From: an uncultured Candidatus Saccharibacteria bacterium
GTDB lineage: Bacteria; Patescibacteriota; Minisyncoccia; UBA6257; 2-01-FULL-56-20
Assembly (NCBI GenBank): GCA_964505005.1
Contig: CAZDFQ010000005.1
Coordinates: 1 to 60,134 of the forward strand
DNA: 60,134 nucleotides
Direction of reading: 5' to 3'
The notes under the pieces are model-generated. The model saw only the letters and a program-made list of their open reading frames with translations, ran no database searches and was not told where the DNA came from. This document shows, piece after piece, positions 4,096 through 60,134 of this stretch; the stretch's first letter is position 1, and each line of letters opens with the position of its first letter. Made by a program: the position numbers and the translations under genes.

Positions 4096-4869
4096 ATGAA
4101 GCTCATTTCTTTAAACATTTGGGGTGGCCGCGAATACGAACCGTTGCTTAATTTTTTGAAAGAACATTCTTTCAAGACCGACATCTTTTGCTTTCAGGAA
4201 GTTTTCAGCTCTTCTTCGGGAATAGTTGAAAGTCGCCGCAGCCGGGTCAATATCCTGGCTGACCTCGCTAATTTACTGAAGGATTTTAATTATTATTTCG
4301 CGCCCGAACAGGATGGCTTTGATTTTGAAGGCCGAGTAGATTTCGATATTTCTTTTGGCCAGGCGACTTTTGTCAAAAAAATCCATCAGGTTGATTCCGA
4401 AGGCAGTATTTTCACTCATCTTGACCGGAATCAAGCCAGGAAAGCGCTTGATTTTCCGGCTAATTTCCACTATGTCCGATTCCAGGCCCAAGGCAAAAAA
4501 TTCGTTGTCTTGAATTTTCACGGCCTTTCCGAACCCGGCAGTAAGCTGGATACGCCAGAGCGCTTGAATCAATCCTGGCTAATAAAAAATTTTTTGACTA
4601 AAGAAACCGGCGCCAAGATTCTTACCGGAGATTTCAATCTTTTGCCGGAAACGCAAAGCATTGCCATCCTGGAAGAAAACCTACTCAACTTGATTAAAAA
4701 ATCCAAAATTCCGCGAACCCGGAGCCGGCTGTCGCCGTTTTTCGGCAAAGCTGATTTCCAAAAATTCGCCGATTACGTGCTTGTTTCGCCAGAAGTAAAG
4801 GTTATAAATTTTGAAGTGCCGGATGTGGCTGTCTCTGACCATTTGCCGATGGTCTTGGAATTTTCGTAG
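4096..4869 (+). CDS. endonuclease/exonuclease/phosphatase (EEP) family protein
   Basis: SLNIW, DIFCFQEV, GDFN and SDH motifs. Confidence 0.92.
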   Translation: MKLISLNIWGGREYEPLLNFLKEHSFKTDIFCFQEVFSSSSGIVESRRSRVNILADLANLLKDFNYYFAPEQDGFDFEGRVDFDISFGQATFVKKIHQVDSEGSIFTHLDRNQARKALDFPANFHYVRFQAQGKKFVVLNFHGLSEPGSKLDTPERLNQSWLIKNFLTKETGAKILTGDFNLLPETQSIAILEENLLNLIKKSKIPRTRSRLSPFFGKADFQKFADYVLVSPEVKVINFEVPDVAVSDHLPMVLEFS

Positions 4870-4951
4870 TGCCGCCGAGAGGGTTCGAACCTCTAACCCT
4901 TACGGGACAGCGTCCTAAGCGCTGCGCGTATTCCATTTCCGCCACGGCGGC
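4870..4951 (-). tRNA. tRNA-Leu(TAG)
   Basis: GCCGCCG/CGGCGGC acceptor; CAGCG-CTTAGGA-CGCTG anticodon arm; long variable arm. Confidence 0.95.
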
Positions 4952-5024
4952 AAAATTTTAGTGGTGGGATTTCATCACCTGTCCACTCCTAATTTTTATA
5001 TATTTTTTAAGCAAAAATCAAGCA

Positions 5025-5054
5025 TTGACTTTTTAATAATTTTATGCTTATATT
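5025..5054 (+). promoter_or_regulatory. sigma70-type promoter of cassette 1
   Basis: TTGACT-N18-TATATT; 28/30 identical to 6248-6277. Confidence 0.7.
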
Positions 5055-5183
5055 TTGAAAGTATGGCTGACAGAGATTGAATTTCTCGGCAGCCAGTTTG
5101 AGAACAAACAAGAAGTAACAAATCACAGAATCAGCATTTCACAATAGCCCTGGACAGTAGGGCAACAGAAGGAGGGACCGAAA

Positions 5184-6174: not shown

Positions 6175-6222
6175 AACCAACCCCGCCTTCTGAAAGCCGT
6201 TAGGCAATCGGGAAGCGGGGTT
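6175..6222. repeat. cassette-end hairpin, copy 1 (AACCAACCCCGC...GGAAGCGGGGTT)
   Basis: inverted arms; homologous to 7828-7887 and 8838-8887. Confidence 0.75.
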
Positions 6223-6247
6223 GACCATTTTATAGCCCCCCGCAAAT

Positions 6248-6277
6248 TTGACATTTTTATAATTTTATGCTTATATT
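6248..6277 (+). promoter_or_regulatory. sigma70-type promoter of cassette 2
   Basis: TTGACA-N18-TATATT. Confidence 0.75.
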
Positions 6278-6401
6278 TAAATAGTACGGCTGGCTCGGGA
6301 ATTGTCCTGGGTCGGCTGCCAGCAGCTTGAGAACAGAATACATAATCACACCTTTCGCATTGCCGTTCGGCTTGACCAGCGGCAAACAAAGGAGGCAAAC
6401 C

Positions 6402-7827: not shown

Positions 7828-7887
7828 AACCAACCCCGCTTTCTCAAAGCCTCAGGCAGACGCCTGAAGGCCGAGAGGAAGCGGGGT
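7828..7887. repeat. cassette-end hairpin, copy 2
   Basis: AACCAACCCCGCTTTCTC...GAGAGGAAGCGGGGT. Confidence 0.75.
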
Positions 7888-7955
7888 CAAGTATTTTAAT
7901 TATAGTAAATAGAATAGCGCTTGGTTTTTAGCTGAACTTTTGTTATGATTTTACA

Positions 7956-8192
7956 ATGCTGCCTGAAAATCTTAAAAAATATTTTTGGGATTCGGATTTT
8001 TTTTCGTTAAATCCCGATATTCATAAACGATATATTCTTGAGCGGCTGTTGGAGTTGGGCGACGAAAAAGCCGTCAACTGGCTGAAATCCGCCTTCCGAG
8101 AAAATGATATAAAAGATGTGCTGCAGAAAAGCCGGACGCTTTCTAAGCGGAGTCTTAATTTTTGGCGCTTGGTTTTGGATAAGACGGCATGA
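7956..8192 (+). CDS. putative antitoxin (DUF6922-like)
   Basis: KYFWD...YILERLLELGD...NFW signature; overlaps the toxin gene (ATGA). Confidence 0.75.
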   Translation: MLPENLKKYFWDSDFFSLNPDIHKRYILERLLELGDEKAVNWLKSAFRENDIKDVLQKSRTLSKRSLNFWRLVLDKTA

Positions 8193-8830
8193 ATTTTCAT
8201 CCGGAAATCCTTTCGGGAGAAGCCCAGAAAACATTCTCCTCGCTTAAAAATTTTCCGCTGATTCGGAAATTTTATCTCGGCGGCGGCACGGGATTGGCTT
8301 TGCAAATCGGTCATCGAACTTCGGCGGATTTAGATTTTTTCATTGACGGAGATTTTGATGAAGCCGCCTTGATTCAAGAACTCAAAGACCAGGGCGAATT
8401 TCAGCTGGAAAAAAAGGCGGAAAATACGGCCATCGGAATATTGAACGGCGTAAAGATATCTTTTCTGGGATACAAATACCCGCTTCTTGAAAAAATAGAG
8501 GAATTAGAGGCGATTAAAATCGCTTCCATTATGGATATTGCCTGTATGAAAGTTGACGCGATTGCCAGCCGGGGGACGAAACGCGATTTTGTTGATGTTT
8601 ACTTTGCCGCCAGAGAAAAGTTCTCGTTAAAAGAAATTTTGGATAATTTCGAGAAAAAATACGTTTCCCTCAACTACAACTTGATACATGTTAAAAAAAG
8701 CCTGGTTTATTTTGAGGACGCCGAAGCGGACCCGATGCCGATTATGTTAAAACCGGCCAAATGGACGGAGATTAAAATATTTTTTGAACAGGAAGTGCTT
8801 AAGTTGATTAAGATTAACACCGCTGATTAA
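8189..8830 (+). CDS. AbiEii/AbiGii-family nucleotidyltransferase toxin
   Basis: YLGGGTGLALQIGHRTSADLDFF, MKVDAIASRG.KRDFVD. Confidence 0.9.
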   Translation: MNFHPEILSGEAQKTFSSLKNFPLIRKFYLGGGTGLALQIGHRTSADLDFFIDGDFDEAALIQELKDQGEFQLEKKAENTAIGILNGVKISFLGYKYPLLEKIEELEAIKIASIMDIACMKVDAIASRGTKRDFVDVYFAAREKFSLKEILDNFEKKYVSLNYNLIHVKKSLVYFEDAEADPMPIMLKPAKWTEIKIFFEQEVLKLIKINTAD

Positions 8831-40648: not shown

Positions 40649-43600
40649 ATGAGTACAAGTAAAAAAATTGCATCGATTGCGCTTTCTGTCACCACCGGAG
40701 TGTGGATGTCGGGAGCGCTTTTTTTGCTTCCAGTAGCTCAAGCCCAGAATGCTTCTGGCATTCAGGCGCAGATTAACGCTTTGCTCACCCAGATTCAGCA
40801 GCTCCAGGCCCAGCTCCAAACAGCTCAGGGCGGAGCCGCTGCTTGCAGTTTCACCCGCTCCCTCACAGTGGGTTCAACTGGAAATGATGTGAAATGTCTG
40901 CAGCAGTACCTTAACGGCGCTGGCTACAAAGTGGCTGCCAGCGGCGCTGGTTCGCCCGGCAATGAGACAACCTATTTTGGTCCGGCGACCAAAGCCGCAG
41001 TTCAAAAATGGCAGGCCGCTAGCGGCGTTACTAATAGTGGCTACTTTGGTCCGCTTTCCCGGGCCAAGTACACCTCATTGGCTGGCGGAGCGGCCCCGAC
41101 AACCGGCGGCGCGCCAACCACCGGCGGAACGCCACAGCTTCCTGCTCCGGCTTCCGGCCTGGCAGTTAGCTTGGCTTCAGACAATCCACCGGCTGGTTCC
41201 CTGGTGGCTGGCTCAGGCCGAAATCGGGTCTTGAGAGTCAGCTTGACTGCCGGTAATGCTTCCGGGGTCACCGTTTCTGACATTAAGTTCAGAAAGACCG
41301 GCGTTGTTTCGGACAGCCAGATTACCGGCGCCTACTTGACGGAATCAGGCCAGGTGATTGCGCAGTATCAGTCGCTTTCCAACGGCGTGATTGATATTCC
41401 GGTGAACTTGTCAATCGCCGCAGGTCAAACAAGAACCTTCGGATTGTCGATTGACATTTCCACCGGCGCGTCTGCCGGCAACACGATCAGCTTCCAGCTT
41501 GCTTCAGTAAATGACATTACGTCTACTGACGCGAGCGGCAACGCGGTCGCCGAAGCCGGCCTTTTCCCGATTAACGGCAATACCTTTACGGTAACCAAGG
41601 TTTCCAGTCCTGACCTCGCCAGTTTGAGCGTGGCTTCGAGCTCAATCGGGAGCTCGGTTAATGCCGGCACCCAAGCGGTCATTGTCGGCGCTTGGAATCT
41701 TACGGCTACAAACAGCAAAGTTTGGCTGCAGAATATCAAGTTCACGGTCGTCGGTTCGGCGAATCCGGCCGATATTCGGAACATAAAGCTGCTCGTCAAC
41801 GGCACGCAATACGGCAGCGCTTTAGCCGCCTTGCCTCCGTCGAATATCGCCTACTTTGACTTGTCGTCCAACCCGGCGCAAATCAACACCGGCTCGAACA
41901 ATGTCCAGCTTTATGCTGATGTGATGGGCTCGCCGAACAAGGATTTCCAGTTTGAAATTCTCAATTCCTTTGACATTTACGCCCTGGACTCTCAGTACAA
42001 TGTCTCAATTACTGGCGCAGCCAGTGTCGGAACGAAGGTATCCATCAATACCGGCACGATTACGGTCAGCGCCGATTCAGGGACGCCGACCGGCAATGTT
42101 GCCAAAGGACAGACCGGCGTAACGCTCGCCAAGTTTGATATTTACGCTGCTGGCGAAGCGGTGCGGGTCAAATTCATCGGCTTTAGTCTCGCCTTGACAG
42201 GCGTGGTGACAAGCACTTCAGCGTCAACACTCTCGAGTTTCGTCAAGAACGTGGCGCTGACTGATGATGCCGGCGGCCAGGTTGGGACAACGATTAACAC
42301 GCCGCCCACCGCCACTTCGTGCGACGCCGGTTCAGGTTCGATAAGCGGCTGGGCAACAAACACCTTTGCCGGACAAGGCACGTTTAGCGGCTCTTCTGCT
42401 GCTACCTACGTGGATTGTTTCGGTACAGGCAGTTCGAACATAAACTACACCGTGCCGGCAAACACCACGAGAGTGCTCTCGCTTAAAGCAGACCTCCAGT
42501 CGCCATCAAGTCCGGCGACATTCGGCACAATCACAGCTGCTCTTATCGCCGAGACCTCAAACTTGCAGGGCTTGGTTTCCAGCCAGACCAACTCCAGCGG
42601 CGCGGCATCAGGTAGCTCTCTGACCCTTGCCGCGAGCTCGCTGACGGTTGCCCAGAACAGCGCGCTTGGCACGCAAAATGTCGGCCGGGGCGCGAGCAAC
42701 GTAAAAATCGGTTCCTACGCGCTTACGGCTTCCTCGGCTGAAGGCGTGAATATCTCGAACATCACGATTCAGAGCGCGACAACTTCAACCTCGCCGTATC
42801 CGTTGCAGAACCTGAAAGTCAAAGTCGGCAGCACGCAGTTCGGCACAACCCAGCCGACGCTTTCTTCCGGCGGCTCCTACTCGTTCTCCGGAACGCCAAT
42901 TGCGATTCCTATCGGCAGCACGGTTTATCTTGATGTCTACGCCGATATTCTGTCTTCGGCAACAGCCGGAACCTACGCGACATCCACCACGCTTTCGGGC
43001 TGTTCAGCTTCGGGCGCGACTTCGCTCGCGGCCGTCAGCTGCACTCCAACCGGCGGTCAGAATTTGAGCGTGGCGGGTCAGGCGTCGGTTACCGTCACGG
43101 CTGACACCAGCCAGCCCGCTTCCGGACAAATCGTCATGGGCTCAAGCCAGGCCGGCTTAGCGTCATTCCGATTCACTGAAACCTCGAACATTGAGCCGGT
43201 CAAAATCACGATTTTGACCGTGGTTGACCAGGTTTCTTCAACCACCGCGACTAAAGCCGCGTTCTCCAATCTGAACCTCTACAACTCGGCTGGCAGCGTG
43301 GTTGGCACCGCTGGCGCGGCCAGCGCGTCGGGCACCAATATGTACGCCTACACCTTCAACTTCGCCACTCCGATTGTGGTTCCGCAGGCGAACTCGGTGA
43401 CTTATGCCCTGAAAGGCGATGCCGCTTCCTACAGCTCCTCGGGCGCGACCGACAACACCACCCACGTGTTAAAGGTGGCCAATGCTGCCGCGGCAACGGC
43501 TTTTGGCAACACTTCCAATGCCACCAGTTCGGTTACCATCAGCTCGGCTAACGGCAACACGATGACAGTGTTGCGGACAGCCCTGTCTCCTTCAGCAGCC

Positions 43601-44116
43601 GCCATCAACGGTGGCACTCGCTCCGGCAGAAGCTCGCAGGATAACCTCGGCACGCTCACTTTCTCGGCGAACAGCGCCGGCGCCGCGGCCATCAACACGG
43701 TAACCATTACCTTCAGCGGCAATGGTCCGTCGAACACCACCTTCTTGGACGGCGTGACGCTTCTTGACGCCAACGGCAACAACGTTACATTGACGAGCGG
43801 TGTAGCTGTGGCTACTTCTTCTGTGCCCTGCAGTAGCACGACTACCTGTATCAAGAGCTGGAACTTCGGCGCTGGCATCAACAGCGCGTTTGCGGTTAGC
43901 GGCGGCTCATCTTACGCCTTCACATTGAGGGTGGATGACACCAAGGCCTATGGCCCGGTTTCGAACACCTCGATCGGTATTACGGCCGCGATCAATAACG
44001 CGACGGATGTCACCTACACCGATGGTTTGGATAGCGCTGCCACAACTGGCCTCAGCTTCCCGACCAATGTCGTGCCGCTCCAGATCAACTCCGTGGCCTT
44101 CCCGGTTGGCGGATAG
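40649..44116 (+). CDS. large secreted S-layer-like protein with peptidoglycan-binding domain
   Basis: signal peptide, FTRSLTVGSTGNDVKCLQ...YFGPATKAAV, S/T/A/G-rich beta repeats, downstream terminator. Confidence 0.85.
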   Translation: MSTSKKIASIALSVTTGVWMSGALFLLPVAQAQNASGIQAQINALLTQIQQLQAQLQTAQGGAAACSFTRSLTVGSTGNDVKCLQQYLNGAGYKVAASGAGSPGNETTYFGPATKAAVQKWQAASGVTNSGYFGPLSRAKYTSLAGGAAPTTGGAPTTGGTPQLPAPASGLAVSLASDNPPAGSLVAGSGRNRVLRVSLTAGNASGVTVSDIKFRKTGVVSDSQITGAYLTESGQVIAQYQSLSNGVIDIPVNLSIAAGQTRTFGLSIDISTGASAGNTISFQLASVNDITSTDASGNAVAEAGLFPINGNTFTVTKVSSPDLASLSVASSSIGSSVNAGTQAVIVGAWNLTATNSKVWLQNIKFTVVGSANPADIRNIKLLVNGTQYGSALAALPPSNIAYFDLSSNPAQINTGSNNVQLYADVMGSPNKDFQFEILNSFDIYALDSQYNVSITGAASVGTKVSINTGTITVSADSGTPTGNVAKGQTGVTLAKFDIYAAGEAVRVKFIGFSLALTGVVTSTSASTLSSFVKNVALTDDAGGQVGTTINTPPTATSCDAGSGSISGWATNTFAGQGTFSGSSAATYVDCFGTGSSNINYTVPANTTRVLSLKADLQSPSSPATFGTITAALIAETSNLQGLVSSQTNSSGAASGSSLTLAASSLTVAQNSALGTQNVGRGASNVKIGSYALTASSAEGVNISNITIQSATTSTSPYPLQNLKVKVGSTQFGTTQPTLSSGGSYSFSGTPIAIPIGSTVYLDVYADILSSATAGTYATSTTLSGCSASGATSLAAVSCTPTGGQNLSVAGQASVTVTADTSQPASGQIVMGSSQAGLASFRFTETSNIEPVKITILTVVDQVSSTTATKAAFSNLNLYNSAGSVVGTAGAASASGTNMYAYTFNFATPIVVPQANSVTYALKGDAASYSSSGATDNTTHVLKVANAAAATAFGNTSNATSSVTISSANGNTMTVLRTALSPSAAAINGGTRSGRSSQDNLGTLTFSANSAGAAAINTVTITFSGNGPSNTTFLDGVTLLDANGNNVTLTSGVAVATSSVPCSSTTTCIKSWNFGAGINSAFAVSGGSSYAFTLRVDDTKAYGPVSNTSIGITAAINNATDVTYTDGLDSAATTGLSFPTNVVPLQINSVAFPVGG

Positions 44117-54121: not shown

Positions 54122-54826
54122 TTAACCTTTTGCCGCCGCCAAGCAGATGATTTTTCGGGCGCCAGCTTGTTTAAGGCAAGTAGCCGCTTCAAAGAAAGTG
54201 GCTCCAGAAGTGGAGACGTCGTCGATTAAAATGAAATTTCTACCAGTAACCAATTCCGGCTCTTTTATCGAAAAGCAGTTTCTCGCATTCTCTTTTTTCT
54301 GGTCGTAATTTTTTATTTCACTCTGCGGCTTGGTGTTCCGGGTCCGGACCAAAATTTCCGGCTTCATCTCCAGATTGAAATGTCGGCTGAAAATTTCAGC
54401 CAGCAACAACGACTGGTTGAAGCCGCGCTGCCTGTGGCGCAACCGGCTTAACGGCACAGGCAAAACGACATAGCCGCTGACGGCCAAGGGAATGTTCCGG
54501 GCATAATTTATGAGAAGCGCTCCAAGCGGCCGGGCCGCTGATTTCAAAAAATTGAATTTAAGGCCCTGAACAAGATTTTTGACTGCTTCGTCCCGGTAAT
54601 CGGCTGCTGAACCTAAAATATAAGGAAAATCAAAATGGCAGATTTTTTTATTTTGAGGCAAGCGAGCTAAGCAGCGGCCGCAGAAAAGGGAATTGAAAAT
54701 TTTTATTTTAGAGAAACATTGTTCGCAGATGGCTTGGCCGCTTTCCACGTTTGTCCGGCAGTTGACGCAGACCGGCGGGAAAATCAAATCAAGAAGCCGG
54801 GAAAATATTGAAGCTAAAAGTGCCAT
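54122..54826 (-). CDS. comF: ComF family phosphoribosyltransferase
   Basis: double zinc-ribbon CxxC, RGFNQ, LIDDVSTSGAT. Confidence 0.93.
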   Translation of the reverse strand: MALLASIFSRLLDLIFPPVCVNCRTNVESGQAICEQCFSKIKIFNSLFCGRCLARLPQNKKICHFDFPYILGSAADYRDEAVKNLVQGLKFNFLKSAARPLGALLINYARNIPLAVSGYVVLPVPLSRLRHRQRGFNQSLLLAEIFSRHFNLEMKPEILVRTRNTKPQSEIKNYDQKKENARNCFSIKEPELVTGRNFILIDDVSTSGATFFEAATCLKQAGARKIICLAAAKG

Positions 54827-54942
54827 AGTTATCCACAATCGGCTAATGTCTTTATTCTATAATAATCTTAAATATCAATTATCAATAATTAGAAAGGTCG
54901 GTTAGACAACGATAAATCAAGAAATATTTTTCAGCGCATTCT

Positions 54943-55200
54943 ATGGACGGACAATTTTCATCGCCAGCAGCGGACAAATTCGAATTGGGAAAAAAGTGGT
55001 TCTGGCTCGGAATAGTCATCGCTTTTTTGAATGTGGTCGCGGGTTTAGTTTACGGCATTGCGGTAATGACCGAGGGCCGGCGCCGCGAAGGCCTGATTAT
55101 CGTCGGCTGGGCCATTGTCTGGATTTTAATCAGTTTCTTCCTTATCGGCCCCTGGCTGATTAAAAGCGGACTGCTGCCGAGATTCCAGATTATAAGGTAA
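54943..55200 (+). CDS. small membrane protein
   Basis: two hydrophobic segments. Confidence 0.65.
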   Translation: MDGQFSSPAADKFELGKKWFWLGIVIAFLNVVAGLVYGIAVMTEGRRREGLIIVGWAIVWILISFFLIGPWLIKSGLLPRFQIIR

Positions 55201-55224
55201 GAGGCCCTTCTTCCAGACCGATTT

Positions 55225-56619
55225 TCAGAACTTTACTTCTTCCCGAAGAACATTGAATCTCTGGTTTCCTTTTTTGTAGTCAACCGAACGCATCTCTCCG
55301 TCGGACAAGATGACGCCGGCGGAATCTTTGACTCCGCTTATGATAACCGGAAGCTCCAGAGAAACACTCTCGATTTTTCTGAAATTATTGGCGAGATAGA
55401 GATAGTGACCGATTCCCAATTCAACCCAGCGGTTGCTGCCGGGATTGATTATCATTTCGGCGCCGGCTTTTTTATATTCCCAGAGATCTTCCGGATAATA
55501 AATCTCGATGCAAATAGGCGCGGCCAAAAGAATTTTCCGGCCGTTTTTTTCAAAGCTCAAGAGATTTTTCTCGCCCCTGAAATAGGGATTGGCCGGATTA
55601 AAGACCGCATAATTTTTGAATCCCGGGCTGGTTTCGAGAGCCCAATTAAAAAAAAACGGATACCATTTGCCGAACGGCCAGTATTCGCCGATGAAGGTCA
55701 GCCGGTATTTGCTGCGGCTAGCCGCGACCCCGCCGCTTTCATTAAACAATAAATCGGAATTATATCTTTTGTTGTTCTGGAAAGTGTCGAAACTGGCAAT
55801 AACCGGCGTGTTCAAATTTTTTGCCAGGCCGCCACTGATGCTGAACATCTGGTTTTCTTCTGATGGCTGACCGCTGTAATCCAGCAAATCTTCGGGCAGA
55901 ATAATGAGGTCGCTTTTTTCTTTTTTCAATTCGTTCTCTAAAGCGCCTAAATCGGTCGAGCGGAAATTTTCATCGGCAGAAACAACGGCGACTTTAAGAG
56001 AATTAGTCAGTTTTTGATAGTTTGAATAATTTTTTTGGAGCTGGAGTTGGGAAAGTCCCCAGCCGGAAAACAGAATAACCGCCGTTAAAACTACGGGCCG
56101 GACAACCGATTTTTTATTGCCCTCTTTCAGTTTCAAAATAAAATAAGCGAGCAGTGCATTGATGACCGCTCCGAAGAAAATCAGCGAAGTTAAGCCGCCG
56201 AAGCCGGCCAAACCCACAAAAGCCGAGGCGCCGAAAGCATTGCCGAGCGTCATTACATAGGTTGGCAGAAAAGAATATCTCGCCTCCAAGATGTCCCAAA
56301 TCGTCCAAAGAAAAGGCAGAGTTGCGAGAATAATTTCCGGCCGCCTCGCGATTTTTTTCAGCAGAAAAACCGAAACCGGCAAGCCAAGAAAAATCAGCAC
56401 CGAAAAAAACCAGGTTATTGGTTCAAACGTGTAATAAACCACTCCCAGGGCGAAAGCCACCCGGAAAAGAGCGGCGCCAGCCAGCAGGCGCCAGAGTTTT
56501 TCCTCTTTCAAAAAAAACAGAAAAAGCGGGACCAGAAAAATAAAGCCGAAAAGATAAGAAAATTTGAAAGGCAGAAAAGCCAAAATCCCGAGAACCGCGG
56601 CTGAAGTCGGCAGAAACAT
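55225..56619 (-). CDS. lnt: apolipoprotein N-acyltransferase-like protein (CN hydrolase)
   Basis: N-terminal TM bundle; triad motifs ILPE, SKYRLTFIGEYWP, PICIE. Confidence 0.75.
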   Translation of the reverse strand: MFLPTSAAVLGILAFLPFKFSYLFGFIFLVPLFLFFLKEEKLWRLLAGAALFRVAFALGVVYYTFEPITWFFSVLIFLGLPVSVFLLKKIARRPEIILATLPFLWTIWDILEARYSFLPTYVMTLGNAFGASAFVGLAGFGGLTSLIFFGAVINALLAYFILKLKEGNKKSVVRPVVLTAVILFSGWGLSQLQLQKNYSNYQKLTNSLKVAVVSADENFRSTDLGALENELKKEKSDLIILPEDLLDYSGQPSEENQMFSISGGLAKNLNTPVIASFDTFQNNKRYNSDLLFNESGGVAASRSKYRLTFIGEYWPFGKWYPFFFNWALETSPGFKNYAVFNPANPYFRGEKNLLSFEKNGRKILLAAPICIEIYYPEDLWEYKKAGAEMIINPGSNRWVELGIGHYLYLANNFRKIESVSLELPVIISGVKDSAGVILSDGEMRSVDYKKGNQRFNVLREEVKF

Positions 56620-56854
56620 TTCTTGATTATAGCATTCGCAAGCGCGCCGCTCTTTAGGTGATTATTTTTTAATTGCGTGAATTGCCCCGCCCTTCCGGAC
56701 GGGGGCTTCTTATAATATAATTCAAGACTTTGTTCACTGTTATGCTACAGCATAACAGTGAATCTTATTTTCGTGTCCCTTCTGCAAATCTTACGCAAAA
56801 ACCGAGGAGAACCGGCGCCCTCCCCATTCATTACGTAGCTTTCCAAGCCCTCAA

Positions 56855-56881
56855 GGCGATGCCAAGGTATTGAACCATTAC
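56855..56881 (+). repeat. 27-bp direct repeat, copy 1
   Basis: GGCGATGCCAAGGTATTGAACCATTAC. Confidence 0.9.
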
Positions 56882-56995
56882 AATTTATTGATTTTTAAAG
56901 GGAAATATGTTTAATTTTAAACAGGTGTTTGATCGTTTAAGTGTTAGGTGCTGGTAACGGGATGAGCGGCTATGGCCGTAGAGGGGAGGGCAAAA

Positions 56996-57433
56996 ATGAA
57001 AGCGTTGTCGCTCGCGGTGCTCGCTGTTGTGCTGGCTGGTTGCTCGGTCTATATGGCCGCCAATCAGCCAGCGGCCAAGAACCTTGACCTGCTCAAAGTC
57101 GGGACGCCGCGGGCCGAGCTCATTGCCGAGTTCGGCCAGCCCGCTGTATCCGAAACAAAAAATGGAAGGCGGGTGGACACATTCTCCTTTGTGCAAGGAT
57201 ACAGTACCGGCGCCAAGGTGGGCCGGTCGCTGTTCCACGGCGTGGCCGATGTCTTCACGCTCGGTTTGTGGGAGGTGGTCGGCACTCCCACCGAGATGGT
57301 CTTCTCCGGCGACAAGGTCGCCTTTGAGGTGACCTATGACGCCGAGGACCTGGTTGCCGAGGTGAAGCAACTCGGCACCGCCAAGCCCAAGGAGAAGGCC
57401 TCTCCGTCGCCCGCTCCCTCGGGTTCGAAATAG
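56996..57433 (+). CDS. predicted lipoprotein (SmpA/OmlA-like fold)
   Basis: lipobox VLAG-C; VGTPRAELIAEFGQP; SD GGAGG. Confidence 0.8.
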   Translation: MKALSLAVLAVVLAGCSVYMAANQPAAKNLDLLKVGTPRAELIAEFGQPAVSETKNGRRVDTFSFVQGYSTGAKVGRSLFHGVADVFTLGLWEVVGTPTEMVFSGDKVAFEVTYDAEDLVAEVKQLGTAKPKEKASPSPAPSGSK

Positions 57434-57500
57434 CCCCTAGTCCCTGCCACGGCCCCGATTTCTCGCACCAGCAAGAAGTCGGGGCCGATTCATTATCTTG

Positions 57501-57527
57501 GGCGATGCCAAGGTATTGAACCATTAC
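57501..57527 (+). repeat. 27-bp direct repeat, copy 2
   Basis: identical to 56855-56881. Confidence 0.9.
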
Positions 57528-57663
57528 GCAAGGTTGACTTTTTGAAAATTATTGGTAAAATATAAAATAGTAAATTCGGGACCAGTGCGGTTCCGAGTGG
57601 ATTGCCAAAGACGCAATACGGACGAAAAGGATGCGGCCAACAATGGCCGCGAGGGAGGCTGCG

Positions 57664-57921
57664 ATGAAGAAGATGTTGTTCGTGGCGGTGGTCGGCCTGC
57701 TGGCGCTGGCGGCAGGGTGCGCGTTCACGCCTTGGGTGGGCATGGAACGGCCCCGGCTCGTTGCCGCGCTCGGGGAGCCCTGGACCATTGGGATCCAGGA
57801 TGTCTTCTTCGAGGGCGATACCGCCTACGTGGTCAGCTACGACGACCACGGCCGGGTGAAGACGTTTGAACGGCACCCGGTGGAGATGCGGGCCCTGCCG
57901 ACCGGGAGCGTTGCCCGCTAA
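57664..57921 (+). CDS. small predicted lipoprotein
   Basis: lipobox LAAG-C; VGMERPRLVAALGEP; SD GGAGG. Confidence 0.75.
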   Translation: MKKMLFVAVVGLLALAAGCAFTPWVGMERPRLVAALGEPWTIGIQDVFFEGDTAYVVSYDDHGRVKTFERHPVEMRALPTGSVAR

Positions 57922-58129
57922 CCTCATAGCGGACGACGCTCAGAAGATTCGAGGCTCGGTTGCTAATGCAGCCGGGCCTCCTCGCTTTTAATAAAATGAC
58001 TCAAAATTTGGATTTGACTTTTTTATAAAAAATTGCTATTGCTAAAATAGTAATTTTCGGTAACTATCATAGGTGAGAAGTTGATCTATAATAGCTCGCG
58101 GCTGATAAGCCGCAAGAGGAGGGCTCGAG

Positions 58130-58753
58130 ATGAAGAAGATGTTAGTGGTCGTGGTTGCCGCGCTCGTGTCTGGATGTGCGCCGCAGCAGCTGGGGCAATG
58201 GAACCCGGCTGCCAAATGGATTGAACTGCAGCCAGGCATCCAAGTGGTAGCTTCGCGTCTAGCTGACAGAAAGACCGCCTACTACGCCATCGAGCTACAC
58301 AAGGCGGGCTGGCTGTCTTGGAACGGAGTCATAGACGAGCCCTTGTCGTTGGACGACAAGGGACGGCCGGCGACCCAGGAAGTCGGAGATTTGCTCGGCA
58401 AAAAAACCGAGCAATTATTCGACGAATATGGCATCAGGCTCATCAGGGTAGCGAGCCTGAAAGACGTTCCTGCCGGCAATGTCGCCATTGATATCTGGGT
58501 CGGGGTCAAGACACTCCCGCGTTCTGCCCGGGATGAACAGCGGGGACGAGTTATCCTCGGGGCGGCAACGAGGTGGCTCGTCTACTACAACAGCAGGAAG
58601 GAAGCAGATCTGTATCAACTTGCAACCCAGACGTTGAGCGCTTGGGCCGGGAAAGAAAAGGCCCCGGCGTACTTCGCCGAGACGCTGGCTGATATCCTGA
58701 CAAGCAGGCTTTTCAGCGCCCTTGCTGGCAAGGAACTCAGCCAGGCTAGATAA
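58130..58753 (+). CDS. predicted lipoprotein
   Basis: lipobox LVSG-C; SD AGGAGG; downstream hairpin 58772-58807. Confidence 0.8.
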   Translation: MKKMLVVVVAALVSGCAPQQLGQWNPAAKWIELQPGIQVVASRLADRKTAYYAIELHKAGWLSWNGVIDEPLSLDDKGRPATQEVGDLLGKKTEQLFDEYGIRLIRVASLKDVPAGNVAIDIWVGVKTLPRSARDEQRGRVILGAATRWLVYYNSRKEADLYQLATQTLSAWAGKEKAPAYFAETLADILTSRLFSALAGKELSQAR

Positions 58754-58886
58754 ACTCGCCCAGAGATGAATGCGACCTCGCTTCGAAACGAATCGGAGCG
58801 AGGTCGTCTGCTTTTTTATTATATTATAATTATACATACCAACTTATCCCCAAGCTTATTAATCCGGATATTGTATAATAACCTTG

Positions 58887-60134
58887 ATGCAAAAACTCTA
58901 TCAAAATAAGTTTCTGACCGTTCTTCTGATTTTAGGCGTGCTAATTTTCTCCACCCGGATAGCTGAAGCCAAAGGGGTTTTTAACTGGATAGGGGCGATA
59001 TTAATGATGATTGTTGTGGCAGTCATTGTTTTTGTCCAGCCAGAGCTTATTTTCGGTGCCACCTCAATAATCGGCGCAATCTGGGTTGCTTCGGAAGGTC
59101 TATCAGCAGGGCTTGCTATAGGTTTGGGAATAACAGCAGCCACAATGGTAAGCGTAGGCACTAGCGTAGCTCTATCTTTCGGTTTATGTCAGCTGGGCGT
59201 TGGATCCACCTATTTCACTGGCTGCGCCAGCCGCGGCGGCACGCCGGTTATCCAAATTTCGTCTCAATCAATCTCCAGCTGTTCCTACCAAATACCAATC
59301 AAGTTTTACCTTCCTTCTTTTAACCGCGGTTACGGGGGGCAATACTGCGAGGTTTCGACTCCGTCTAGCGGCGAGTCCGGGACTTCCGAGTGCCTTTCCT
59401 ATAAAAGCTTGGTAAGCGGGACCCAACGTTACAGCGACGAGGTTTGTTCCGTGCCGGCTGCCAATGGGCCTTATGCTAAAGTCAATATTTCTACGGACGG
59501 CGGCCGGAGCTACGCTACCCAGTGCACTCCTGTGGACCAGTACTGCGGTCTTGCAACAATTGACGAAACTCAGAGCAAAATTGCTCTCTACCGCTTATCA
59601 AAACCAGATACGACCAATGAAGACCTCAATCGCTGGTTCTTCGAACAAATAGGAAATCAGGTAGGTAACGGCTTCACGGCTATCACTACTACTGGTGCTG
59701 GTGCCGGCCCTTCGAGCATCTATCACACTGCCAGTGATGTCGGGGCTTTTGCCGTGGTCAATTACGCGGACATCTGCTCCGGCAATGTCTGTGAATTCAA
59801 AGACGGTTCAGCCCCCAATAACTCGGACATTGTTTATGCGGCCAAAATCCTCGGCCAATATCAGGGCTATGTTCCGCCGGCGGAGCCAAGCGGTGGTAGC
59901 CAGCTGCCCGTTCCTTTGGTTTACGCTCAGACCCTTGGCGGCGCTTGCGGCATTGCCGGAGACAACAAATTTCTGAACACCGACAACGCCAATACCGTTA
60001 CTTTTCCCTGGGTAGGCGGCGCGAATTACGGCCAGGGCAATGCCTTTGCCGGGCCTTACAAAACCGAAACCCCTCAATGCCAGCCAGCCCAACCAGTTCC
60101 TACTGTCTCCCTTTCCGTTCTCGGCCCCAATACC
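58887..60134 (+). CDS. secreted Cys-rich surface protein, truncated by the window end
   Basis: ATG at 58887, frame open to the end of the window (absent from the ORF track because it has no stop); signal peptide ending AEA. Confidence 0.8.
   Translation, partial: MQKLYQNKFLTVLLILGVLIFSTRIAEAKGVFNWIGAILMMIVVAVIVFVQPELIFGATSIIGAIWVASEGLSAGLAIGLGITAATMVSVGTSVALSFGLCQLGVGSTYFTGCASRGGTPVIQISSQSISSCSYQIPIKFYLPSFNRGYGGQYCEVSTPSSGESGTSECLSYKSLVSGTQRYSDEVCSVPAANGPYAKVNISTDGGRSYATQCTPVDQYCGLATIDETQSKIALYRLSKPDTTNEDLNRWFFEQIGNQVGNGFTAITTTGAGAGPSSIYHTASDVGAFAVVNYADICSGNVCEFKDGSAPNNSDIVYAAKILGQYQGYVPPAEPSGGSQLPVPLVYAQTLGGACGIAGDNKFLNTDNANTVTFPWVGGANYGQGNAFAGPYKTETPQCQPAQPVPTVSLSVLGPNT

Follow-up and report, generated by a model that had tools for sequence, protein, structure and literature searches.

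An islet of three lipoprotein genes in a Candidatus Saccharibacteria genome, probably acquired, with two direct repeats read as promoter-docked IS481-like ends

The window analysed here is a stretch of 60,134 nucleotides (nt) from an uncultured Candidatus Saccharibacteria bacterium (assembly GCA_964505005.1, contig CAZDFQ010000005.1, positions 1 to 60,134 of the forward strand). Near its right end lie three small genes for putative lipoproteins, here called LP1, LP2 and LP3, together with two direct copies of a 27-mer, GGCGATGCCAAGGTATTGAACCATTAC. A first-pass annotation, made from the letters alone, had taken the region for a cassette array assembled by serial capture of small envelope genes, with the 27-mer as a border. 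Closer study leads to a different combined explanation, which we consider probable: the locus is an acquired islet of three unrelated lipoprotein genes, and the 27-mers are stumps of insertion sequence (IS) ends that had docked at promoters. The islet would have been acquired horizontally by an ultra-small genome of Patescibacteria type, and each 27-mer would be the solitary left terminal inverted repeat (IRL) of an IS481-like IS, the transposase bodies having been lost.

The 27-mer and the IS481-like family

The two copies of the 27-mer lie 646 bp apart, as first described, and a search of the whole genome (810,360 bp, 12 contigs) at up to three mismatches returned these two and no third copy; within the window, two matches at that threshold compare with none in 100 shuffles. 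The copies are identical at 27/27 positions and have a common inner boundary, and the 15 nt that follow them agree at only about 8/15. Identity between the copies begins with the conserved part of the repeat and ends at the outer end of the element, and by eye an 8-nt word, ATTCATTA, stands to the left of both. In each case 6 nt separate the repeat from a -35-like hexamer, TTGATT in unit 1 and TTGACT in unit 2. Beyond the repeat, neither IS DNA, transposase homology nor an inverted arm was detectable in 56500-58900. The repeat features are as follows.

56838..56854, + strand: possible older, degenerate inverted-repeat-like stretch GCTTTCCAAGCCCTCAA, touching copy 1; a weak likeness, about 12/17 positions against the IS end consensus as judged by eye
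56855..56881, + strand: 27-mer copy 1, read by sequence match as a solo IRL of an IS481-like element
57501..57527, + strand: 27-mer copy 2, read as a second solo IRL stump; begins 14 nt past the hairpin that follows LP1

When the search was relaxed to 6 mismatches, one more site appeared in the genome, C2:62192-62218 on another contig, with 21/27 matches to the 27-mer. It forms the left end of the only IS481-like element of the genome (C2:61283-62222), which is about 0.93 kb long, has 18-nt inverted repeats, and carries a helix-turn-helix (HTH) plus rve transposase gene split by a frameshift into open reading frames (ORFs) of 226 and 137 amino acids (aa). The wider family was followed with a 20-mer from the repeat, CCAAGSTATTGAACCATWAC, of which more than 122 metagenome contigs have a copy, in many cases some 100 nt short of the contig end. 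At no more than one mismatch, 12 of 301 genomes sampled from the phylum have it as well, again often at contig ends, and none has its reversed control. The heptamer that precedes the 20-mer in the window fits the conserved inner positions of the repeat, with minor variants at two.

Eighty metagenome loci, 74 of them non-identical, were fetched by exact match to the 20-mer. A second, inverted arm was found in 31/80, at 878-948 bp in 30 of these and, in a single spurious case, at 57 bp. An intact transposase of 311 aa matches the IS481 model best (E 5e-52), its 177 bits falling short of the curated cut-off of 224. It starts just inside the 20-mer end and points away from it, which identifies this end as the left one. 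Of the 44 loci that extend at least 1 kb inwards from the end, a full transposase is present in 25, a fragment in one and neither in 18, so that a solo stump next to a promoter is a frequent end state.

A perfect TTGACA lies 4-9 nt beyond the 20-mer in 42/74 loci and at none of five control offsets; if a match of at least 5/6 to the -35 hexamer is accepted, the count is 57/74, against 2-6 at the control offsets. Of these 57 boxes, 54 stand at just two distances (22 loci at 6 nt, 32 at 7 nt), and a -10 hexamer at 16-18 nt is present in addition in 32/74 loci. An exact target duplication of 6-8 bp was seen in 8 of 24 two-armed loci, one copy outside the right arm and the other between the left end and TTGACA; given that the duplication sits between the IS end and the hexamer, the -35 box belongs to the target and not to the element. 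From these loci, the IS family appears to insert in one orientation, 6-7 bp upstream of the -35 hexamer of promoters already in place. The two copies in the window would thus show where the IS once landed, at the promoters of LP1 and LP2, or else one of the two would be a duplicate. In sum, the 27-mer has the character of an IS481-type terminal inverted repeat and shares the promoter docking of the family, and it is not attached to an intact element. The earlier proposal that it is a cassette border, or the recombination site of serial capture, finds no support: the sequence matches the consensus left end of an IS481-like IS, and the repeat brackets one of the three genes only, units 2 and 3 having none between them.

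The three gene units and their origin

Each LP gene is supported, by its sequence signals, as a transcription unit of its own with predicted AT-rich promoter of sigma-70-like type, short GC leader hairpin, Shine-Dalgarno (SD) sequence, ORF, and closing hairpin or terminator. The parts of the units, beyond the repeats listed above, are these.

56888..56893, + strand: -35-like hexamer TTGATT of unit 1, 6 nt past the 27-mer
56966..56989, + strand: hairpin GCGGC-TATG-GCCGT in the 5' untranslated region (UTR) of LP1, then SD GGAGG at 56985-56989
56996-57433, + strand: LP1, 145 aa, lipobox ..VLAG-C
57450..57487, + strand: hairpin after LP1 with 17-nt arms, 88% complementary, and no T-run; not called a terminator
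57534..57561, + strand: predicted promoter of unit 2, TTGACT, 16-nt spacer, TG-TAAAAT; 10/12 matches, TG present
57633..57658, + strand: 5' UTR hairpin GCGGCC-AACAAT-GGCCGC of LP2, then SD GGAGG at 57654-57658
57664-57921, + strand: LP2, 85 aa, lipobox ..LAAG-C
57951..57990, + strand: terminator-like hairpin with T-run after LP2, found by scan
58014..58053, + strand: unit 3 promoter module, TTGACTTTTT ... TAAAATAGTAA, a homologue of the unit 2 module; upstream 27-mer absent
58098..58122, + strand: 5' UTR hairpin GCGGCT-GATA-AGCCGC of LP3, then SD GGAGG at 58118-58122
58130-58753, + strand: LP3, 207 aa, lipobox ..LVSG-C
58772..58817, + strand: predicted terminator after LP3, 15-pair stem with T-run, found by scan

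Much of what had first been seen in these units was borne out. All three products have a lipobox Cys and fit a signal peptide ending in the lipobox [LVI][ASTVI][GAS]C, and the ORFs are GC-rich (0.62 for LP1, 0.67 for LP2 and 0.57 for LP3, against a genome mean of 0.46). The promoter words shared by units 2 and 3, TTGACTTTTT (57534, 58014) and TAAAATAGTAA (57563, 58043), are equally spaced in both and occur 7 and 4 times, respectively, in the genome. The arrangement GCGGC-N3-10-GCCG[CT]-N1-8-GGAGG-N3-12-ATG has three matches genome-wide, and these are LP1, LP2 and LP3; its stems of 5-7 bp are present in the minimum-energy folds with the SD left unpaired, and the whole-leader fold energies are ordinary against shuffles (z = 0.31, -0.07 and -1.44). 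A terminator for every unit had also been proposed, which the scan upheld for LP2 and LP3, calling sites at 57951-57980 and 58772-58807, and not for LP1, where the hairpin is without a T-run. By eye, no such hairpin-SD leader is apparent in the 26 delimitable upstream regions of LP1 homologues, among 80 loci. Recipient-type promoters appear to be joined to foreign leader-ORF-terminator segments. Gradual amelioration was rejected, by inference, as the source of the AT-rich spacers, since the third-position GC content (GC3) of the ORFs is still extreme and such a mosaic is not explained by it.

The foreign look of the genes, remarked on at the outset, is upheld by their composition and relatives. 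GC-rich patches are common in this genome, which makes GC3 the meaningful figure; against 831 crude ORFs (mean 0.504, sd 0.084), LP2 at 0.872 is the highest of all (rank 1.000), LP1 at 0.767 lies at the 99.9th percentile (rank 0.999) and LP3 at 0.673 at the 98th (rank 0.981). LP1 and LP3 were found in 0/60 relatives, and a word-based search among 5.8 billion clustered proteins retrieved LP2 only as itself. The direction of transfer would be into this genome. The earlier thought that the genes come from a host and serve mimicry is speculative. Taxonomy of best hits, proposed as a check, is informative for LP1, which points to double-membraned lineages; LP3 has three distant relatives only, and LP2 none by the word-based search.

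Vertical inheritance of the three as tandem paralogues, the condition named beforehand as refuting capture, fails on the joint evidence that LP1 and LP3 were not found in the 60 relatives, that the proteins have no detectable mutual likeness, and that their homologues are not found together. Pairwise BLASTP gave E values of 0.056, 5.6 and 1.3, the best of them over 15 residues. Within 3 kb of LP1 homologues no LP2 or LP3 homologue was found in 80 loci, where tblastn returned 5 weak matches to LP2 (E 0.17-0.8) and none to LP3. The signal-peptide DNA of LP2 and LP3 is 78% alike over 32 nt, a likeness not counted as evidence of homology, since proteins of the LP3 family often begin with MKK as well.

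LP1 is the best placed of the three proteins. It has 974 relatives at E <= 0.001, the best of them 59-71% identical; named relatives come from Nitrosomonas, Nitrosospira, Syntrophorhabdus and Pseudomonadota, and some sources label them BamE. Its identity to lipoproteins of double-membraned lineages is 53-68%. In species-representative genomes, 197/202 matching stretches encode an LP1 relative. Lineage labels were read for the best 80 of the 202 stretches, and those named among them include Nitrosomonadaceae, Methylocystis, Hyphomicrobium, Desulfobacteraceae, Syntrophorhabdus, Omnitrophota, Binatia, Planctomycetales and Elusimicrobia, most of which are double-membraned; no title among these best 80 names Patescibacteria or the Candidate Phyla Radiation (CPR). 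The lipobox Cys is invariant in the LP1 family, as it is in that of LP3. An AlphaFold model of LP1 (predicted local distance difference test score, pLDDT, 76) has as its top Foldseek matches BamE chains, OsmE and BtiO, a type VI secretion system (T6SS) immunity lipoprotein, with probabilities of 0.97-1.00, weak E-values (0.06-0.13) and a TM-score of about 0.5 when target-normalised and about 0.34 when query-normalised. Neither the Pfam BamE model, even at E <= 10, nor the PDB, searched with the family profile at E <= 1, gave a match. As modelled, LP1 resembles the BamE/OsmE-like small lipoproteins of double-membraned bacteria; proteins of the alpha-alpha-beta-beta-beta SmpA_OmlA fold head the Foldseek list, at the weak E-values just given. 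LP1 differs from them in an extra, highly conserved segment, GRxxFHGxADVxTLGLWE. Its N-terminal half also matches the phage family phrog_3135, of unknown function, at E 3.6e-9.

The other two proteins are harder to place. LP2 is an orphan and possibly a minimal BamE-like domain; its language-model look-alikes (scores 0.88-0.92) include BamE/BLIP clusters, a lead only, and an hhalign profile comparison with the LP1 family gave a probability of 14%. LP3 is, on its sequence relatives, a predicted member of a rare lipoprotein family: three distant relatives were found among 1.84 billion representatives, at 29-35% identity, and all three share the MKK...GC lipobox, with Cys16 invariant. Language-model look-alikes at 0.96 in Pseudomonadota-labelled clusters are again a lead only. 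The single-sequence AlphaFold model of LP3 (pLDDT 41) was unusable, and the fold search was made for LP1 alone.

Weighing the explanations

The reading of the locus as an acquired islet with two docked IS ends has a number of observations weighing against it. On the side of the repeat, the left end of the one recognisable element in the genome, that on contig C2, is followed by no obvious -35 box; the metagenome loci, having been fetched by exact match, represent one selected variant of the repeat; 17/74 of them are without a near-consensus -35 box; 16 of the 24 two-armed loci show no exact target duplication; and the consensus promoter scan called no promoter in unit 1. Both stumps in the window have the heptamer GGCGATG, which occurs in 0/80 metagenome loci, and no intact IS with an end of the window type is assembled in the genome, the C2 copy differing at 6 positions. 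On the side of the genes, LP1 stands alone on a branch of 0.4 in a quick tree, with no supported sister, so that no donor lineage can be named, and its best identity in the tree set is 68%, to a Syntrophorhabdus row, which is no close donor; foreignness of LP2 and LP3 rests on composition, on LP3 being missing in relatives, and on language-model look-alikes. As for the assembly, all runs compared come from one sample, possibly the source of the assembly itself, and genome anchoring is shown on the left side only, the right-flank ORF being without relatives in the 5 nearest genomes.

How two identical stumps came about is the point on which the docked-end reading divides. Two insertions may have been made by one IS lineage, now lost, each decaying to the repeat; alternatively, a single stump may have been doubled as recombination at the repeat brought in the LP1 unit. 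The private heptamer, together with the lack of an intact IS having that end, indicates that the two stumps are specifically related to each other, and it would be strange for two independent decays to stop at one and the same nucleotide, which leaves duplication or recombination equally open. In the fuller form of the second course, a sub-variant of the docked-end explanation, one stump and promoter would have existed already, and the LP1 unit, bearing its own IS end, would have been added by short-homology or transposase-assisted recombination. Taken by itself this is the less likely version, though one with some weight. The 27/27 identity, the common boundaries and the 8-nt word left of both copies favour it, as does the fact that genomes have the IS end in common as a portable stretch of homology. 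Translocatable units of IS26 join next to an existing copy, and stump-directed addition of the LP1 unit would be analogous. However, a stretch of 27 bp gives homologous recombination very little to work with, no such mechanism was found for IS481-type elements in the literature searched, and no other direct-copy pair was seen among the 80 fetched loci, which were scored at one match per locus.

It is improbable that the 27-mer has instead been kept as a regulatory site of the LP1 and LP2 promoters, for instance an operator or an upstream element to which an HTH protein would bind, the N-terminal part of the transposase being one example. The same register to the -35 box in both copies is what such a site would show, and so is the contrast between perfect identity in the repeat and about 8/15 in the next nucleotides; metagenome stumps, too, keep just the conserved repeat. 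Yet the register is already accounted for by the docking rule, the sole transposase gene of the genome is frameshifted and goes with a different end, and unit 3 has a homologous promoter with no 27-mer.

Slightly more doubtful still is the view nearest to the cassette idea, in which the 27-mer is the attachment site of an integron-like or small integrative system and the LP1 unit entered as a 646-bp circle. An exact repeat with sharp edges on both sides, bracketing one complete gene unit, is exactly the picture that Campbell-type integration of a one-copy circle would give, and the heptamer variant is private to the two copies. Against this, the 27-mer coincides with the consensus end of an IS family that has a DDE transposase, and no copy stands between units 2 and 3. 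No integrase gene (intI) was found near the array; the single genome match to PF00589, a tyrosine recombinase gene, is on contig C1 (87765-88289). For attC-type sites the check consisted of Rfam models only: cmscan over 56400-59000 gave no attC-like match at E <= 1, and two unrelated small RNA matches under their gathering scores. On the empty-site check suggested earlier, the contigs of four runs, which drop rare variants, show neither a joint across the LP1 unit nor an empty site. Unitigs of 31-59 nt in runs X1-X3 do match 57500-57542 (copy 2 and the next 15 nt) with 2-3 differences and then diverge; their depth is 13-110, mostly above the 11-18 of the genome (X1, X2), with one X3 unitig at 3, and they probably stem from IS ends in other members of the sampled community.

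Least likely of all is a mis-assembly in which a Patescibacteria contig was fused to DNA from a double-membraned bacterium that co-occurs with it. What speaks for it is the strong compositional contrast, the closeness of the block to the contig end (1.3 kb), a place at which other contigs part ways (loose ends at 60076), and a right-flank ORF of 417 aa, running off the contig end, for which no relatives were found in the 5 nearest genomes. What tells against it is that two per-run assemblies run uninterrupted from the ComF-like gene past LP3, the X2 contig (6854 nt) covering 54500-60109 and the X1 contig (4454 nt) 55656-60109, with 0 differences; contigs of runs X3 and X4 cover 10/30 and 13/30 bins and are uninformative. 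The 27-mer is also shorter than the 31-letter words of these assemblies, and an IS end that occurs in the phylum lies in the AT-rich spacers separating the GC-rich ORFs. The ComF-like gene at 54.1-54.8 kb is 67-74% identical in DNA to that of a same-genus genome, which anchors the left side; the same-genus contig ends just past this gene, and synteny in another relative stops near 54 kb, so that the relatives define no empty site.

Lipoprotein processing, similar regions and known systems

The presence of these lipoboxes is at odds with the enzymes recognised in the genome, which is 98.9% complete and gave 0 matches each to Lgt (PF01790) and LspA (PF01252); the same searches gave matches in 10/14 control genomes, and Lgt lies above cut-off in 1/60 relatives. 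The lipoboxes would therefore not be processable here by the canonical route, which fits a foreign origin of the LP genes. Their products would be exported and either anchored by an uncleaved signal peptide or cut by signal peptidase I; an uncleaved anchor, a signal-peptidase-I cut, and an unknown lipidation route or non-homologous enzymes are open alternatives. In archaea, Lgt-independent lipoproteins made by non-homologous enzymes have been proposed, according to the accessible text of PMC12462473. A loose scan for lipoboxes across the genome produced 11 matches, of which the top four by GC3 are LP2, LP1, an ORF at C4:31952-32791, and LP3. The C4 ORF (- strand) is GC-rich, with a GC3 of 0.71 and a plausible lipobox ..ALSG-C, and has neither the hairpin-SD leader nor the 27-mer.

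A gene with a bearing on this pathway is the divergent neighbour of the islet.

55225..56619, - strand: Lnt-like membrane CN-hydrolase gene, 464 aa, assigned by profile matches

Its product matches Pfam CN_hydrolase at E 3.6e-8, LNT_N with 23.7 bits (under the cut-off of 27.1), and TIGR00546 lnt at E 2.8e-22 with 79.5-84.8 bits (under the cut-off of 132.9; match 55396-56445), and no sequence match to it was found in the PDB. The composition of the gene is ordinary (GC3 0.529, 62nd percentile). It was not found in the 5 closest relatives. A second Lnt-like CN-hydrolase membrane gene lies at C12:3526-4803 (128 bits, cut-off 132.9), and 4/60 relatives have a gene of this kind. In the spacer between the start of the divergent gene and the first 27-mer there is a palindrome at 56732-56763, with perfect 14-bp arms (TTCACTGTTATGCT AC AGCATAACAGTGAA) followed by a T-rich run; it was called terminator-like, and no + strand gene ends there.

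The architecture of the islet had been said to parallel that at 5.0-8.9 kb of the window. Duplicated promoter and terminator modules around GC-rich ORFs are indeed present there, whereas the ORFs encode membrane and SPFH proteins and not lipobox proteins. Near-identical promoter modules of the form TTGAC[TA]TTTT..AATAATTTTATGCTTATATTT.. stand at 5024-5075 and 6247-6298, and homologous terminator modules, AACCAACCCCGCYTTCT...GAAGCGGGGT, at 6175-6222 and 7828-7890, the two of each kind being all that the genome has. They frame a 322-aa membrane protein, a Band_7/SPFH protein and a 142-aa anchored protein, and adjoin a tRNA-Leu gene (4869-4951) and a toxin-antitoxin pair of AbiEii type (7956-8830). 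Another compositional outlier in the window is a 1155-aa secreted protein at 40649-44116 (GC 0.57), rich in Ala, Ser, Thr and Gly and with a coiled N-terminal stretch. Beside the IS on contig C2, at about 62.6-64.3 kb, is a run of small genes that includes a ParE-type toxin and a small upstream ORF; the spacers there are imperfect palindrome copies (CTATCGAGGTTGAACCTCGAT-like), each then followed by a promoter-like word TTGACTT..., an arrangement that is cassette-like.

The value of the docked-end reading is that an apparent cassette junction is replaced by a checkable explanation, stumps of a promoter-seeking IS, and that it guards against over-reading repeats in tiny genomes. The re-used promoter and leader modules are modestly surprising, and so is the finding of intact outer-membrane-type lipobox genes in a genome with no detected Lgt or LspA: there is an unknown lipobox route, or export proceeds with no lipidation, or the genes are very recent freight. 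A far-reaching conjecture, to which we give very little credence, is that a Patescibacterium unable to lipidate canonically has been taking lipoprotein genes of outer-membrane type from double-membraned bacteria, which may be its hosts, and keeps this growing set beside an Lnt-like gene, each member refitted with a promoter of recipient type and the common hairpin-SD leader. Such products, some of them BamE-like, would act at the interface of epibiont and host, for example on the outer-membrane assembly machinery of the host, and docked IS ends would serve as portable homology for adding units.

Among known elements, the family of the 27-mer agrees with IS481 in its HTH and rve DDE core, its length of about 0.93 kb, its terminal inverted repeats and its target duplication of 6-8 bp; the window departs from it in keeping just the 27-bp left end, as two direct copies on either side of a foreign gene. 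The group appears to read promoters at 6-7 bp from the -35 box, a kind of targeting rule that, in the searchable literature, was found published for Mutator-like elements only; no paper on promoter docking by IS481-type elements was found there, subscription journals and ISfinder lying outside its coverage. The accessible text of PMC3942029 describes TnGBS, ISLre2 and ISKra4, which are Mutator-like DDE elements, as inserting 15-17 bp upstream of the -35 box of sigma-A promoters, with an orientation that goes with asymmetry of the inverted repeats; IS481 has 0 occurrences in that text. Insertion in a set orientation and at a constant distance upstream of a -35 box is thus common to both groups, and the differences are in the transposase superfamily and in the distance, 15-17 bp there and 6-7 bp for the IS481-like group.

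As an array, the islet invites comparison with integron cassettes, which it resembles in its small, unrelated, mostly single-gene units and in the hairpin just upstream of each SD. It differs in that each unit has its own promoter and terminator, the stems are of 5-7 bp and not attC, intI is lacking, and the repeat is an IS end; a common promoter is not what the sequence offers, units 2 and 3 having their own -35/-10 words and terminator-like ends. Phage morons, as reportedly described by Juhala and Hendrix in 2000, are self-contained promoter-ORF-terminator units of deviant composition that often encode lipoproteins, lambda Bor for example. The LP genes are likewise autonomous, deviant in GC and specify small envelope proteins, and half of LP1 matches phrog_3135, whereas no phage genes were recognised around the units, the neighbours being ComF-like and Lnt-like. 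To these known kinds the locus adds an acquired islet of autonomous small-gene units accompanied by decayed IS ends.

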